Virus record (IMG/VR): IMGVR_UViG_3300007214_000006
From: a virus
Lineage: Duplodnaviria; Caudoviricetes
Strand: one strand, 5' to 3'
DNA length: 64,000 nucleotides
The position numbers and the translations under genes were made by a program. The notes beneath the pieces were generated by a model. It made no database searches, had not been told where the DNA came from, and saw nothing but the letters and a program-made list of their open reading frames with translations. Below are positions 11,032-63,963 of the stretch, piece after piece. How positions within the stretch are numbered: the stretch's first letter is position 1; every line of letters begins with the position of its first letter.

Positions 11032-11937
11032 ATGTCAAACTCAATGAGACCAGTATGTTTCGACGAAATCATAGGCCAGAACAGCGTTATAACTCGTTTG
11101 AGAGTCTCTGTGGCCGGTTGTAAAAACAGTGGCACGGTGATGCCTCACGTTTTAATAGATGGGCCTCCCGGCCTTGGTAAGACCACCATAGCGAGCGCTA
11201 TAGCAAATGAATTGGACGTTAACTTATATACTGTAAATGCGGCTAGCATAAGAAGCATAAAAAATATAATGCCATATATTATGGGATTATCTCCAAGATC
11301 AGTCTTATTTATCGATGAGATTCATAGGCTACCAAAAATAGTTGAAGAATTTTTGTATCCTGTTATGGAAGATTTTGCTATTAGTATAACTTCGAAGGAT
11401 GAAGAAGATAAGGATATTGTTGATCAAATAGATATTCCTTTATTTACACTAGTTGGAGCAACAACTAGTGGTGGTAGTTTAAGTCAACCATTTTATGATA
11501 GATTTACAATTAAAGAACATTTAACTTTTTATACCGACAATGATCTAGCTAAAGTAGCAAGGTTGAATTGTGACAAGTTAGGCATAGTCATAAGCGATTC
11601 AGACCTCTTTGAAATAGCAAAAAGAAGTAAAGGAACTCCAAGAATATTAAATGGTAGATTGCTTTGGTATAGAAATTATTTATCTTGCTACCCAGATTCT
11701 ACAGCATCTATTGACGAAATCTTTTCTATACAAGGTATTGACAAAAACGGATTTGATATATATGATAGAATGTACTTAGATGTTCTTAAAAAATCAAAAG
11801 GTAGTCCTCTTGGGCTAAAAAGCATATCATCAATTACAGGAATAGCAATAGAAACAATAGAGAATAGTATAGAGCCATATATGGTAAGAGCAGGCATCGT
11901 TATAAGAACATCAAAAGGAAGAATCATAAATGTTTGA
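11032..11937 (+). CDS. ruvB: Holliday junction branch migration AAA+ motor RuvB
   Basis: GPPGLGKTT, LFIDEIHRL, FTLVGATT, DRF, GTPRI, C-terminal IEPY...RTSKGR; GGAGG RBS favours ATG 11032. Confidence 0.92.
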   Translation: MSNSMRPVCFDEIIGQNSVITRLRVSVAGCKNSGTVMPHVLIDGPPGLGKTTIASAIANELDVNLYTVNAASIRSIKNIMPYIMGLSPRSVLFIDEIHRLPKIVEEFLYPVMEDFAISITSKDEEDKDIVDQIDIPLFTLVGATTSGGSLSQPFYDRFTIKEHLTFYTDNDLAKVARLNCDKLGIVISDSDLFEIAKRSKGTPRILNGRLLWYRNYLSCYPDSTASIDEIFSIQGIDKNGFDIYDRMYLDVLKKSKGSPLGLKSISSITGIAIETIENSIEPYMVRAGIVIRTSKGRIINV

Positions 11938-12709
11938 TATTATATTATCCACAAGAGATAATATAGAATGGATATCAATTTATTTAGATTCATACAAAAA
12001 ATATACAAAATTTATTAATAATTACAATTTAATAATTTTAGATTCTTCTATAGAAAATAATTATCTGAAATTAATAGATATTATAAAAAATTATTATGAT
12101 TTAAATATAACTGTTGTTAGATTTGATAGACATACACATTTTCATGATATATGGCTACAAGGTATAAGTTTAAGCAATAAAAGATATGTGTTAGTTACGC
12201 ATTCTGATATTGTATATTTAATGCCAAACTGGGATATTTTTTTGTTAAACAAAATACACGATGGGTACTCGCTAGTCTCTGTTTCTGTTAGAGAAAAAAT
12301 ATATCCCGAATCGGTATGGATTTGTTGTGAAAAAGAAATTTTTTTAGAATCAAAATTTGATCAATACATATACGAGGACAGGAGTATAGAACACGGAAAT
12401 ATCAAATATGTATATAATAAAAATACCACTAATAAAGAATTTTATATAAATCAATTAACAAACCTAAACAATAAATATGGGGATATAGCAATACTAGACG
12501 GTAAAGAATTTATATATCATAATTATTATTCTACTAGAATACAAAAAGATTCTTTGTGTCCAGTACCAGAAGGGGTAGAAACAATCTATCTTCATAACAG
12601 AGAGTCATTCGATAAAACAATAGAAAAAATTCGCCAATATCTTATTTTAGACAAAAACGATATATCTCTTGCAGAGTATTTATTGAATTATAATCAATTT
12701 ACCAAATAA
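11930..12709 (+). CDS. glycosyltransferase family 2-like
   Basis: IILSTRD start, LIILDSS, YVLVTHSDI (DxD-like). Confidence 0.55.
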   Translation: MFDIILSTRDNIEWISIYLDSYKKYTKFINNYNLIILDSSIENNYLKLIDIIKNYYDLNITVVRFDRHTHFHDIWLQGISLSNKRYVLVTHSDIVYLMPNWDIFLLNKIHDGYSLVSVSVREKIYPESVWICCEKEIFLESKFDQYIYEDRSIEHGNIKYVYNKNTTNKEFYINQLTNLNNKYGDIAILDGKEFIYHNYYSTRIQKDSLCPVPEGVETIYLHNRESFDKTIEKIRQYLILDKNDISLAEYLLNYNQFTK

Positions 12710-12761
12710 TATAATAAATATATATAGGGTGTAATTATATAGCATAGTACCCGGAGGTAAT

Positions 12762-61381: not shown

Positions 61382-61392
61382 TAGGAGCTTAT

Positions 61393-63963
61393 ATGAGCCA
61401 CATAACACCAGCCATAAAAAAGCAAATTTTAGACTTATACAATGACACAGGCGATAATGTGCATGGTATTGGATTTGGATATAAATATATAAATAATCAA
61501 AAAACAGATCAAATAGGTATAGTTTTTATTGTATCTCAAAAAAAACCTTTATCAGAGTTGAATAAAAATGAAATTATTCCATCTACTATACAAATAGAAG
61601 ATACATCATATGTGACAGATGTTGTGGAGCAACGAGAAATACCCAAAGCCATGACTTGCTATTCAATGAGCAATCCTGTTGATCCAGAAATTAGAAGATT
61701 GCGTAGTGATCCAAATTTTTTATATCCGATTAAGGGAGGACAAGAACTATATAGATTTCCTCATGATTGGAACTCTCCTAATGGAATATCGTATAGCGCT
61801 ACCGTCGGAACATTAGGATTTTTGGCAATAGATAATTTTGACAATAATATTGTAGGAATAACAAATTGTCATGTGGCAGTATCCAATATATTCATTGCGT
61901 CCGATAGAATAAAAGCTAATGAAATAGCTAATCCATATAATACTTTTGAAAGCTCAGAGTGGATTAATGGTCAAAAATACTATCCAGGAACTTTATGTAT
62001 TTCTTCTGGTAGTAATTATTTTATATCTTCATCTTTAAAAAGACATATTCCGATATGTAGAAACATATTAAATACTGTTGATTGTGCCGCAATGTTTATA
62101 GATAATAATATTGTTACTCAAAATTCATTTGGGATGCATGCCCCGTCCACACAGCCGATTAGTGCGATAAAACCACCATTTGCAACAACACAAGAATTAG
62201 ACGCATTATTGTCTACTAATCCTTTGTTATTTAGCACAGGGAGAACAACTGGACCAAAAGGATGGACACCTTCACAATCGTGTCAAATGAGTGTTTCTTT
62301 AATTGGTGTCACACTTGATGTAGATTTTGGTACCGAGAGTAATCCTTCTATTACAACATTTAATTCTATTATAGAATATGAATATAAAGATAAAAGCATA
62401 TTTCCAAGCGCCCCGGGAGATTCTGGATCAGCGGTACTAGCCAATATTAATGGAACTATGAAAATTATAGGACTATGTTTTGCTGGCGCTGGTTCGAAGG
62501 CTTATTTATGCAGAATAGACGAGATCGCCGAACGATTAAACATAAGAGCATGGGATGATAGTTATACAATTAATGCTTCTGCTCCATGCGGAAATCCATA
62601 TAGAAGTTCCGACCTTACTGTTCCGACTAATCCTAGACTAGCTGATGTTGTGGTTTGTGACTTTGATAATTTTAGATCTTCGTTGCCAAGTATAATTGTA
62701 AATGGTACAACTTATTATCAGGCGGGGTGTACAAATAAAACTAATTATACCCATATAAATAATATACAAACATTATCTTGGAATACTCTTAATGATGAAG
62801 TACACGAGTGGGAAGCCCCCCCAAAAACAATATTATCTAATTTTCATAATTTATATAATTTTCATGTTATTAAATTACCAGGAGTATCATCCACTAATTA
62901 TCCTTATAGAGCTTGGTTTTTTGGATGGAGCACAGCAAACTTTAATCCAAATCTAGTGCCAATTAATGAACCACCACAACCAGACGGAAATATATATGCA
63001 AATGACGCAATATTTTATGCTAGATCAAATGATCTTATTAATGGCTGGGAGGTATACAAGGGGGCTGGCTCTTGGGATTCAACAATGAATCCATCATTAT
63101 GGTATCCGGTACTATATAGAACAAGTCGAACCAGTAATCCAGCATATCAAGAATTTGCTTCTGAAGTAGCGGGTGATCCCTCTGTTGTATATTATAATGG
63201 AACATATTATATGGCTTATTCTTCTATTGGTAATAAAACAATTGGCGGAACAAATTATTTTATAAAATGTATAATGGGAGCAACATCAACAGATGGTATT
63301 AATTGGACAAAAAGTACTGCTCCTATATTAGAGTGGCCAAGCGAGCGAACTAATCCTTATGTACCTGGAGCAACATGGGGTCCTCCAGGATATTATGGAG
63401 GATATCATAGACCATCATTAATGTTAGATGATAATAAATGGAAATTATGGTTTGATTATTATACTCCAGATGCTGATAAAAAATTATGCCTTGGTTATGC
63501 TGAAAATGCTACGATAAGCTCTTTTCTTAATGGTAATTTAACAAGTAATCCATCGTCACAAAAATGGCAAGTATTACGAGCAGATACTAATCCTTTGATG
63601 GAAAATTGGCCTAATCCAGAAGTAACAAAGATTAATAATGTGTATTATTCTTTTTGTGATGCTACTACAGTTGGTCCTCCTACTCCTTTAGGTTCTCCTC
63701 CGCCAACAGGACTAGGAGGAGATGGTAGAGTTATTACAATGGCTCAATCATTGGATGGTATAAATTGGCAAAAAACAGGATTTTTATTACCAGAAGGAAG
63801 AAATTGTGCCCATGTTCCAGATCCTTATGTTCATACTGAACCTAATGGAGAAACATGGTTATATCTTTATTATGCTTGGAAAACTAGAACTACTCAAAAT
63901 CCTCCTCCAGCAGATTGGTATCAATATAAACAAATTAAATGTATACGCAAAAGGATTTCATAA
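61393..63963 (+). CDS. chymotrypsin-like (Nal1-type) serine protease fused to a five-bladed glycoside-hydrolase-like propeller
   Basis: Prodomain GIGFGYK..V.QKKP..TDVVE; VGTLG, TNCHV, DCA, GRTTG, GDSGS; C-half GDPSVVYYNGTYYMAYS, RPSLM, NPEV, PDPYV. Confidence 0.75.
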   Translation: MSHITPAIKKQILDLYNDTGDNVHGIGFGYKYINNQKTDQIGIVFIVSQKKPLSELNKNEIIPSTIQIEDTSYVTDVVEQREIPKAMTCYSMSNPVDPEIRRLRSDPNFLYPIKGGQELYRFPHDWNSPNGISYSATVGTLGFLAIDNFDNNIVGITNCHVAVSNIFIASDRIKANEIANPYNTFESSEWINGQKYYPGTLCISSGSNYFISSSLKRHIPICRNILNTVDCAAMFIDNNIVTQNSFGMHAPSTQPISAIKPPFATTQELDALLSTNPLLFSTGRTTGPKGWTPSQSCQMSVSLIGVTLDVDFGTESNPSITTFNSIIEYEYKDKSIFPSAPGDSGSAVLANINGTMKIIGLCFAGAGSKAYLCRIDEIAERLNIRAWDDSYTINASAPCGNPYRSSDLTVPTNPRLADVVVCDFDNFRSSLPSIIVNGTTYYQAGCTNKTNYTHINNIQTLSWNTLNDEVHEWEAPPKTILSNFHNLYNFHVIKLPGVSSTNYPYRAWFFGWSTANFNPNLVPINEPPQPDGNIYANDAIFYARSNDLINGWEVYKGAGSWDSTMNPSLWYPVLYRTSRTSNPAYQEFASEVAGDPSVVYYNGTYYMAYSSIGNKTIGGTNYFIKCIMGATSTDGINWTKSTAPILEWPSERTNPYVPGATWGPPGYYGGYHRPSLMLDDNKWKLWFDYYTPDADKKLCLGYAENATISSFLNGNLTSNPSSQKWQVLRADTNPLMENWPNPEVTKINNVYYSFCDATTVGPPTPLGSPPPTGLGGDGRVITMAQSLDGINWQKTGFLLPEGRNCAHVPDPYVHTEPNGETWLYLYYAWKTRTTQNPPPADWYQYKQIKCIRKRIS

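Follow-up and report, generated by a model that had tools for sequence, protein, structure and literature searches.

Locus and phage identity

The window considered here is the whole 64,000-nucleotide stretch of a Caudoviricetes record (IMG/VR IMGVR_UViG_3300007214_000006). Between positions 11930 and 63963, it carries numerous predicted glycosylation genes, including a GT60-family glycosyltransferase (GT; 30058-31341, minus strand) and a partner with two GT-A-type domains in tandem (31313-32974, minus strand). This pair, the Thr/Pro-rich proteins encoded in the same window and the possible targets of the pathway are the subject of the present analysis.

The window has a GC content of about 30%. 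PHROGs identifies rIIA at 4569-7235 (E 1e-112), rIIB at 7256-8134 (E 8e-73) and a ClpP-type head maturation protease at 49135-49812; these genes bear out the phage origin given by an earlier, sequence-only reading of the window (the first-pass annotation). The window's proteins are also encoded on a 222-kb contig, so the source is an uncultured jumbo phage. The GT island is arranged as two compact divergent operons, one running from 32974 to 24233 on the minus strand and the other from 33750 to 45726 on the plus strand; further glycosylation genes form a smaller group at 11930-18699. Much of the island has a GC fraction of 0.22-0.30, compared with 0.36-0.39 in the early-gene region at 4-10 kb. 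The region 11930-63963 is also packed with unrelated genes, encoding Volactin, three proteases, GMP reductase, a sigma-70 region 4 protein and the head protease.

The GT60 enzyme and its tandem GT-A partner

The product of the open reading frame (ORF) 30058-31341 matches PF11397 with an E-value of 1.6e-75 and a score of 255 bits (cut-off 21), the alignment spanning positions 1-44 and 93-351 of the profile; the match is likewise significant in phage homologues. Residues D103-S-H105 and W239-H240 are invariant among 27-30 phage homologues. The D-x-H...H pattern is the GT-A metal site of the sister family GT27, and the phage enzyme appears to keep a GT27-like metal-binding motif set. Its identity is 57-81% to the enzymes of 58 IMG/VR loci and 48-50% to those of Xanthomonas and Stenotrophomonas phage isolates, including the homologue ORF334 of phage XacN1. 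Metagenomes contain more than 7,400 GT60 clusters of this type at 90% identity. A PDB sequence search with the enzyme gave no match and a literature search found no paper linking GT60 to phages.

The characterised GT60 enzymes all glycosylate polypeptides, adding alpha-GlcNAc to Thr-rich mucin domains (Trypanosoma cruzi, Dictyostelium Golgi) or to the hydroxyproline (Hyp) of Skp1 (PMC8724618, PMC6939170). The phage protein is accordingly a predicted polypeptide alpha-GlcNAc transferase and the putative initiating enzyme of the pathway. Another phage, G006, encodes a 799-aa fusion (locus L251, 3590-5989, minus strand) of GT60 with the N and C domains of GT7, a beta-1,4-galactosyltransferase-like family; this fits a GT60 product that ends in GlcNAc and is then galactosylated.

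The 553-aa partner, 31313-32974, overlaps the start of the GT60 gene by 29 nt at its 3′ end and is matched in Pfam by HtrL_YibB. An AlphaFold 2 (AF2) model with a mean predicted confidence (pLDDT) of 85 contains two alpha/beta GT-A domains, at residues 1-280 and 295-553. The Foldseek matches (E 1e-10 to 1e-7) are the GT domains of LH3, mimivirus R699, K4CP, LARGE1 and heparosan synthase; ColGalT1 and PgtA are also among the fold matches, and the N-terminal domain superimposes on HtrL with a template-modelling (TM) score of 0.74. Each half has an invariant acidic motif, WxD144 and E388-D389-D390, respectively. Judging by the model and these motifs, the protein belongs with the tandem GT-A bifunctional glycosyltransferases of the K4CP, LARGE, heparosan synthase, LH3-GT and ColGalT type. 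Its identity is 38-84% across the 58 IMG/VR loci and the isolates.

A conserved pair among variable cassettes

All window proteins were compared by tblastn with 58 IMG/VR loci found through GT60 and with phages XacN1 and Xoo-sp13. GT60 and the tandem GT-A are the only two genes that travel together throughout; they are linked in 56 of the 60 loci, including that of XacN1, where the partner is ORF330. Most phages have a variable cassette of 1-7 kb between the two genes; that of XacN1 consists of a carbamoyltransferase gene and two ORFs. When all ORFs of G001 (324 kb), G002 (272 kb) and XacN1 (385 kb) were compared with the window, homologues were almost confined to the pair. The identity of the pair is 39-70% between phages of 30% and 50% GC, Xanthomonas and Stenotrophomonas phages included. 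The two genes thus appear to form a module that jumbo phages have retained while diverging elsewhere in their genomes, and its retention across such different genomes argues for a phage-encoded acceptor and not a host-specific one. The GT60 assignment made in the first-pass annotation is sound: by Pfam the gene is a true family member, and it belongs to the core that is conserved at this locus.

Closer relatives (L066-L068) keep the flanking genes, namely rIIA, rIIB, RuvB, Volactin, trypsin, S8, a deoxyribosyltransferase-like gene, GMP reductase and GT4. Their cassettes carry other GT families: GT10, GT7, two GT25, GT6 and GT11.

Thr-Pro tract proteins

Five ORFs with long Thr-Pro or Ser-Pro(n) tracts were found, in agreement with the earlier count of at least five. 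Three of them, all on the plus strand, encode candidate acceptors. The product of ORF 12762-13457 is 231 aa long, 41 aa of which form a (TP)n tract. The 762-aa modular protein of 53561-55849 comprises an FGE-sulfatase-like domain, a 140-aa (TPTx)n stalk and a C-terminal domain. The 835-aa protein of 58874-61381 has an N-terminal module, a TPT stalk of about 110 aa, a BNR/sortilin propeller and a TPT tail of about 85 aa, the tracts totalling 195 aa; its pre-tract module is paralogous to residues 21-118 of the 12762 product (E 9e-12). The other two plus-strand ORFs are lineage-specific and Cys-rich. The 498-aa product of 20045-21541, with a putative link to the pathway at most, contains an extensin-like PPPSP16(SPP)n tract (81 aa) and a second poly-Pro tract; the 338-aa product of 21541-22557 contains poly-Pro/SPP tracts (58 aa).

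FGE-sulfatase (formylglycine-generating-enzyme-like) domains are present in the large modular proteins of 53561-55849 and 55855-58845 (plus strand), the former being the one with the TPT stalk; it is possible that they act as lectin-like binding modules.

In ORF scans, (TPTx)n tracts of 60-400 residues turned up in large ORFs of three phages: four in G001, 11 in G002 and at least 15 in XacN1. In the last phage, tract ORFs 369, 370 and 372 adjoin tail sheath genes, ORF325 (3,313 aa) a baseplate wedge gene and ORF350 a head completion gene.

The coding pattern (TPTx)2TPT was used for comparison between genomes. It has no match in five cultured jumbo phages that lack GT60 (Atu_ph07, SCTP-2, phiKZ, GAP32 and RSL1; 1.8 Mb in all), and 9, 34, 4 and 7 matches in the GT60-bearing records G001, G002, G004 and XacN1, respectively; G003, a GT60-bearing 54% fragment, has none. 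Nine IMG/VR contigs longer than 150 kb were found by the tract pattern alone, and six of them encode PF11397, including three of the five complete ones. Two of these six have no tandem partner, which points to more distant lineages. Twelve large contigs were chosen by similarity to ThyA; the five complete genomes among them lack both GT60 and tracts, the lone GT60 contig has 15 tract matches, and the three records with tracts and no GT60 are 44-53% fragments. All six complete genomes with GT60 have tracts, three of them having been chosen irrespective of tracts, while ten of ten complete genomes chosen irrespective of both features have neither. The presence of GT60 clearly tracks (TPTx)n tracts. 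Of the co-occurrences that the first-pass annotation had proposed to check across phage genomes, that of GT60 with T/P-rich genes is borne out; the oxygenase accompanies GT60 only sporadically.

A region of about 13 kb in contig G024:C1 (approximately 67,000-80,500, minus strand) has 268 (TPTx)2TPT matches and is apparently one gigantic mucin-like gene.

Genes of the glycosylation island

Pfam scans, here and below, took in every window ORF of at least 100 aa. Ten GT genes are supported by Pfam, and the total, with the protein atlas and the AF2 model included, is 12 genes and 13 domains; together with two to three unassigned ORFs in the same operons, this makes the earlier figure of about 14 GTs a fair one. 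As had been noted, the GTs carry no transmembrane anchor (none has a hydrophobic 19-mer above a Kyte-Doolittle value of 1.5), a property that does not discriminate in bacteria, where the cytoplasmic GTs of polysaccharide pathways are also anchorless. The four methyltransferases, one sulfotransferase-like protein, one 2-oxoglutarate (2OG) oxygenase and two short-chain dehydrogenase/reductase (SDR)-type epimerases, one weak and one strong, were all recovered.

In the minus-strand operon, the tandem GT-A and GT60 genes are followed by a 153-aa ORF (29600-30061) with no Pfam match, which co-occurs with the next gene in L012, L021 and L023. This next gene, 28231-29622, encodes a fusion of a HAD (beta-phosphoglucomutase-like) domain and a sugar-1-phosphate nucleotidyltransferase (HAD_2, 6e-30; NTP_transferase, 2e-10; NCBIfam bPGM family and rmlA_long) that probably makes a nucleoside diphosphate (NDP)-sugar donor. 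Downstream are a class I methyltransferase (27630-28217; Methyltransf_24, 3e-4), a 290-aa ORF with no Pfam match whose two ends overlap the neighbouring genes (26768-27640), a GT31-like galactosyltransferase (26073-26771; PF01762, 9.8e-12), a 286-aa ORF with no Pfam match (25161-26021), homologues of which adjoin GT60 in L048, L049, L051 and L058, and a GT-B-like protein of the Glyco_trans_1_2/GT47/RXYLT1-like type (24233-25159; atlas feature score 0.96, TM 0.7-0.8), weak homologues of which adjoin GT60 in 12 loci.

The plus-strand operon begins with ORF 33750, for which the Pfam scans gave no assignment, and encodes a GT4-like GT-B (34628-35509; atlas score 0.96, TM up to 0.9 to GT1/GT4-bearing clusters), a GT2 (35512-36231; PF00535, 5e-15), a Glyco_trans_1_2 protein (36228-37130; PF13524, 8e-10) and an NDP-sugar epimerase/dehydratase of the SDR type (37123-38058; PF01370, 5.6e-32), for which NCBIfam gives weak matches to heptose epimerase, GDP-fucose synthase and GalE. 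These are followed by an FkbM-type methyltransferase (38058-38684; PF05050, 1e-16), a second GT2 (38687-39430; PF00535, 4.7e-14), an exostosin-type GT47 (39434-40270; PF03016, 1.2e-15, 58 bits against a cut-off of 33), a methyltransferase (40335-41045; Methyltransf_11, 2e-5), a GT11 of the alpha-1,2-fucosyltransferase family (41047-41835; PF01531, 7.9e-29), another FkbM-type methyltransferase (42510-43340; PF05050, 5.5e-13) and a GT4 (44665-45726; PF00534, 5.7e-15).

The smaller group, also on the plus strand, begins with a weak GT2-like ORF directly upstream of the first Thr-Pro tract ORF (11930-12709; PF00535, 6.8e-5, exactly at the cut-off). It further includes a short SDR/NAD(P)-binding protein with a weak match (16329-16988), a sulfotransferase-like protein with no Pfam match (16985-17821; atlas score 0.98, TM 0.8 to Sulfotransfer_3/Stf0 clusters) and the 2OG-Fe(II) oxygenase, which falls in the prolyl 4-hydroxylase (P4H)/PHD-like clade (17812-18699; PF13640, 1.9e-7).

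The absence of a flippase, polymerase and chain-length regulator, observed earlier, holds, as no such Pfam family was found in any of these ORFs. Priming phosphoglycosyl-transferase and ABC exporter families also have no Pfam match among the window ORFs of this size, and there is no multi-pass membrane ORF.

Host envelope and DNA as possible targets

The composition of the island recalls bacterial surface-glycan loci, and the cassettes may be read as acting on undecaprenyl-linked lipopolysaccharide or capsule intermediates, serving superinfection exclusion or preventing re-adsorption to debris, with the Thr-Pro tracts as unglycosylated linkers. Polymorphic GT clusters of jumbo cyanophages have been interpreted in this way (Iyer et al. 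2021, PMC7824862). GT2, GT4, GT11, GT25, GT10 and GT6 are typical of bacterial O-antigen and lipooligosaccharide (LOS) loci, there are weak NCBIfam matches to WcaA and EpsE types, and the cassettes differ among close relatives and have a GC of 22-26%, below the flanks, as bacterial surface-glycan loci do. However, no priming transferase, flippase, polymerase or ligase is encoded in the window, GT60 has no characterised lipid-linked acceptor, and a module kept across phages of widely differing hosts fits host-specific acceptors poorly. Envelope remodelling also leaves the association of GT60 with TPT tracts unexplained. We consider it unlikely as the purpose of the locus as a whole, though it could explain part of the variable cassettes.

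Glycosylation of modified bases in the phage DNA by some of the GTs, as a defence against restriction, is highly improbable. Phage GTs are classically DNA-modifying, according to what the citing literature takes from Pyle 2024, and a nucleoside 2-deoxyribosyltransferase-like ORF (41969-42517, plus strand) and GMP reductase (43547-44668, plus strand) lie inside the island. No hydroxymethylase, base-J-type or TET/JBP enzyme was found in the window, however, so no generator of modified bases is linked to the GTs there, and the ThyA-family genes of relatives, at 264-328 bits, are in the range of ordinary thymidylate synthases. No DNA acceptors are known for GT11, GT31, GT47 or GT60, and known DNA glycans do not resemble a chain that takes more than ten GTs to build and is capped with methyl and sulfate groups. 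The GMP reductase has an NCBIfam match of 478 bits, above the cut-off, and both this gene and the deoxyribosyltransferase-like gene hold the same position in L067 and L068.

The oxygenase and the question of hydroxyproline

In the scheme put forward in the first-pass annotation, proline is hydroxylated first: the oxygenase would act on Pro in SP(n) or TP tracts, and GT60, GT31 or GT47 would then glycosylate Hyp, as in plants or Dictyostelium. The oxygenase itself appears intact, with H126, D128, H219 and R228 invariant among its homologues and an AF2 model with a pLDDT of 91. The kept HxD...H...R motif, the P4H/PHD-like clade and fold matches to DdPhyA, PPHD, PHD2 and plant P4H speak for such chemistry, as does the position of the gene 1.3 kb upstream of the two extensin-like ORFs. 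In the PDB, however, the fold is matched best by two enzymes with sugar-nucleoside phosphates as substrates, PasI and PolD; DdPhyA, PPHD, Tpa1 and PHD2 come next at similar scores, and a PDB sequence search gave no match.

The distribution of the oxygenase also argues against the scheme. There is no ortholog in XacN1, G001, G002 or G003, PF13640 genes are sporadic among GT60 phages, and no P4H obligately co-inherited with GT60, such as a Skp1-type pathway would have, was found. No GT60-P4H fusion exists in G006, where the extra domains are GT7, or in G007, where the enzyme stands alone. Approximately 15 of the 79 homologue clusters of the oxygenase, all those checked, are SDR fusions of about 490-506 aa, in which the N-terminal half is the ortholog of SDR 16329-16988 and the C-terminal half is the oxygenase. 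The SDR is thus predicted to work together with the oxygenase. The sulfotransferase-like gene separates the two in the window, and in L067 and L068 the oxygenase heads a GT cassette; the trio of oxygenase, SDR and sulfotransferase more likely tailors a sugar.

The Ser-Pro(n) ORFs 20045 and 21541 form a tiny, lineage-specific family, with three homologue clusters among 5.8 billion proteins. L003 and L004 alone have them; in L066 and L067, syntenic relatives that retain all of the enzymes, neither ORF stands between Volactin and the proteases. The equation of GT47 with ExAD and of GT31 with a Hyp galactosyltransferase is a family-level guess: GT31 and GT47 domains are present, and no match of the GT95 or GT77 type, the initiating plant enzymes, was found in the window ORFs. 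A hydroxyproline-based pathway is therefore improbable, more so than envelope remodelling, and hydroxylation followed by priming would be at best a private add-on of this sublineage.

Proposed pathway

Cytoplasmic mucin-type O-glycosylation of Thr in the phage's own large modular proteins is the explanation that we favour, with a probability of roughly 0.55. It is preferred because the GT60 match is strong, the D-x-H...H motif is invariant and characterised GT60s glycosylate polypeptides; because the pair is nearly all that the window has in common with G001, G002 and XacN1; because GT60 co-occurs with TPT tracts; and because the window lacks a priming phosphoglycosyl-transferase, flippase and polymerase.

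We infer the donor sugar, the acceptor residue and the order of steps as follows. GT60 would put the first sugar, most likely alpha-GlcNAc, on Thr hydroxyls of (TPTx)n stalks, the acceptors being the products of 12762, 53561 and 58874 in the window and more elsewhere in the genome. The tandem GT-A, presumably translationally coupled to GT60, would extend the chain, either by one or two sugars or by a repeating disaccharide. Lineage-variable cassettes would elaborate the glycan; here these comprise GT31, GT11, GT47, three GT2, GT4, GT-B, four methyltransferases and the sulfotransferase. Donors would be supplied as phage-made NDP-sugars by the HAD-nucleotidyltransferase fusion, the epimerase and probably the SDR with the oxygenase. 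The outcome would be a variable glycan coat on the stalk and linker regions of appendage-like proteins, which would probably stiffen them and protect them from proteases.

Virions of XacN1, a cultured phage carrying the pair, contain at least two Schiff-positive proteins, and the phage GTs ORF328 and ORF334 were proposed in 2018 as makers of virion glycoproteins (PMC5852040). Together with the tract co-occurrence, the stain supports the cytoplasmic assembly line of the first-pass annotation as far as O-glycosylation of Thr-Pro stalk proteins is concerned; its hydroxyproline/extensin chemistry is not supported. The accompanying statement that no such pathway is characterised in a bacteriophage is too broad, since mycobacteriophages are already reported to have virion O-glycosylation by phage GTs (Freeman 2023, cited in PMC12619734) and the same has been suggested for XacN1; it holds for the GT60-initiated version, of which the literature search found no account.

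Several points weigh against this explanation. The Schiff stain of XacN1 identifies neither the proteins, nor the sugars, nor the enzyme. For this phage, as for phage GT60s in general, the role of the enzyme is a prediction from genes. The complete genomes G009 and G012 have tracts and no GT60, so tracts do not require the enzyme, and the co-occurrence samples are small, partly selected on one feature, include fragments and carry no phylogenetic correction. PHROGs places the tract proteins of the window in families of unknown function only, so that the acceptors are only putative virion components, and some of the 12 GTs in the island could have a different target. A complex prediction for GT60 with residues 736-800 of the 58874 product, within a TPT tract, scored 0.00; it gave no answer and is evidence neither way.

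A more specific version is doubtful as a whole. Mucin-like stalks would carry alpha-GlcNAc-Thr glycans extended by swappable Gal, Fuc and GalNAc transferases (GT31 or GT7, then GT11, GT6 or GT10), giving a histo-blood-group- or Lewis-like ‘virion glyco-serotype’; the tandem GT-A might lay down a repeating disaccharide, as LARGE and K4CP do, and the system would be a widespread counterpart, in bacterial viruses, of eukaryotic mucin glycosylation.

Comparison with known systems

The protist GT60s (T. cruzi OGNT and Dictyostelium Golgi pp-alphaGlcNAcT2) belong to the same Pfam/CAZy family, and the candidate acceptors of the phage are likewise Thr/Pro-rich and mucin-like. The phage enzyme, like other GT60s, has no ricin-type lectin domain of the GT27 kind (PMC8724618). 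The protist enzymes are Golgi type II membrane proteins, whereas the phage enzyme is soluble and would be cytoplasmic in a bacterium; the tandem GT-A partner exists only on the phage side, where donor and acceptor are predicted.

The Skp1 pathway of Dictyostelium and Toxoplasma (PhyA, Gnt1, PgtA) also has a cytoplasmic GT60 followed by a two-domain bifunctional GT, PgtA, which fold-matches the phage partner, and a PHD-like oxygenase is encoded in the window as well. In contrast to that pathway, the window has no Skp1-like single-site substrate, the phage acceptors would be long repeats and not one proline, and the phage oxygenase is SDR-fused in homologues and not co-conserved with GT60.

Among viral systems, chlorovirus PBCV-1 Vp54, the mimivirus fibrils with R699 and L230 and, according to the literature citing Freeman 2023, the O-glycans of the mycobacteriophage capsid and tail tube share with the proposed phage system virus-encoded soluble GTs and sugar-nucleotide enzymes acting in the cytoplasm, own structural proteins as targets and variable gene sets; R699 is itself a fold match of the phage tandem GT-A. 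The phage system differs in its GT60 initiator, in acceptors that would be mucin-like (TPTx)n stalks and not C-terminal tails or capsid N-/O-sites, and in being so widespread, with thousands of jumbo-phage sequences from the environment. Bacterial O-antigen, LOS and capsule clusters resemble the island as mosaic low-GC cassettes of GT2, GT4, GT11, GT25, methyltransferases and NDP-sugar enzymes, but the window lacks a phosphoglycosyl-transferase, Wzx, Wzy, Wzz and ligase, and a polypeptide-type GT leads. On the favoured reading, the system is a variant of the virion glycosylation that viruses encode, with GT60 as the initiator; the literature search found no description of such a variant.

Other genes and elements of the window

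ORF 19044-20048 (plus strand) encodes a full-length Volactin, an actin-like protein (PF25216, 2.7e-64); the ORF is 92% conserved in L003 and L004, and in the relatives L066 and L067 it always adjoins the trypsin-like and S8 proteases. The two poly-proline ORFs lie directly 3′ of it, an arrangement that recalls eukaryotic poly-Pro/actin partnerships. Three serine proteases are encoded on the plus strand next to glycosylation genes: a 960-aa protein with a C-terminal S8 domain (13454-16336), a trypsin-like protease (22558-23337) and a subtilase (23327-24241). The phage's own serine proteases suggest a possible reason for protecting linkers. The small product of 47376-47981 (plus strand), encoded upstream of the head protease, contains a domain of the sigma-70 region 4 type (6e-12) and is possibly a phage sigma or anti-sigma-like regulator.

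ARAGORN called no tRNAs in the window, and an Rfam scan of it gave no family at threshold. Two tRNA-like elements, at 8145-8212 and approximately 1860-1930 (both plus strand), upstream of ORFs 8283 and 1975, respectively, have an acceptor stem and a perfect GGTTCGATTCC-type T-arm; the best Rfam score, 22 bits for tRNA-Sec, is under the gathering score. Candidate signals for promoter and timing logic were rejected. A TTGACA-type site apparently lies 5′ of the GT60 operon, and a sigma-70 scan, which found 20 sites where 13.5 were expected, did no better than with shuffled sequence, the DNA being AT-rich. RGTGTA-like boxes occur 5′ of 12762 and 51159; the TAKRGTGTAW box is not enriched (4 against 2.1).

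Biological significance

Mucin-type O-glycosylation through GT27 or GT60 is regarded as a trait of the eukaryotic secretory pathway, and among phages, virion glycosylation is known for no more than a few mycobacteriophages. With XacN1 and related phages in culture and Schiff-positive virion bands known, the proposal can be tested now. If it is true, jumbo phages of a large group, abundant worldwide, glycosylate their own stalk proteins in the cytoplasm, starting with GT60 and using cassettes that differ among close relatives. This would bear on the origin of GT60 and GT27 and on the choice of soluble enzymes that could serve in glyco-engineering. It would also bear on the protease resistance of phage appendages, on the recognition of hosts by them and on how grazers or immune systems see phages.

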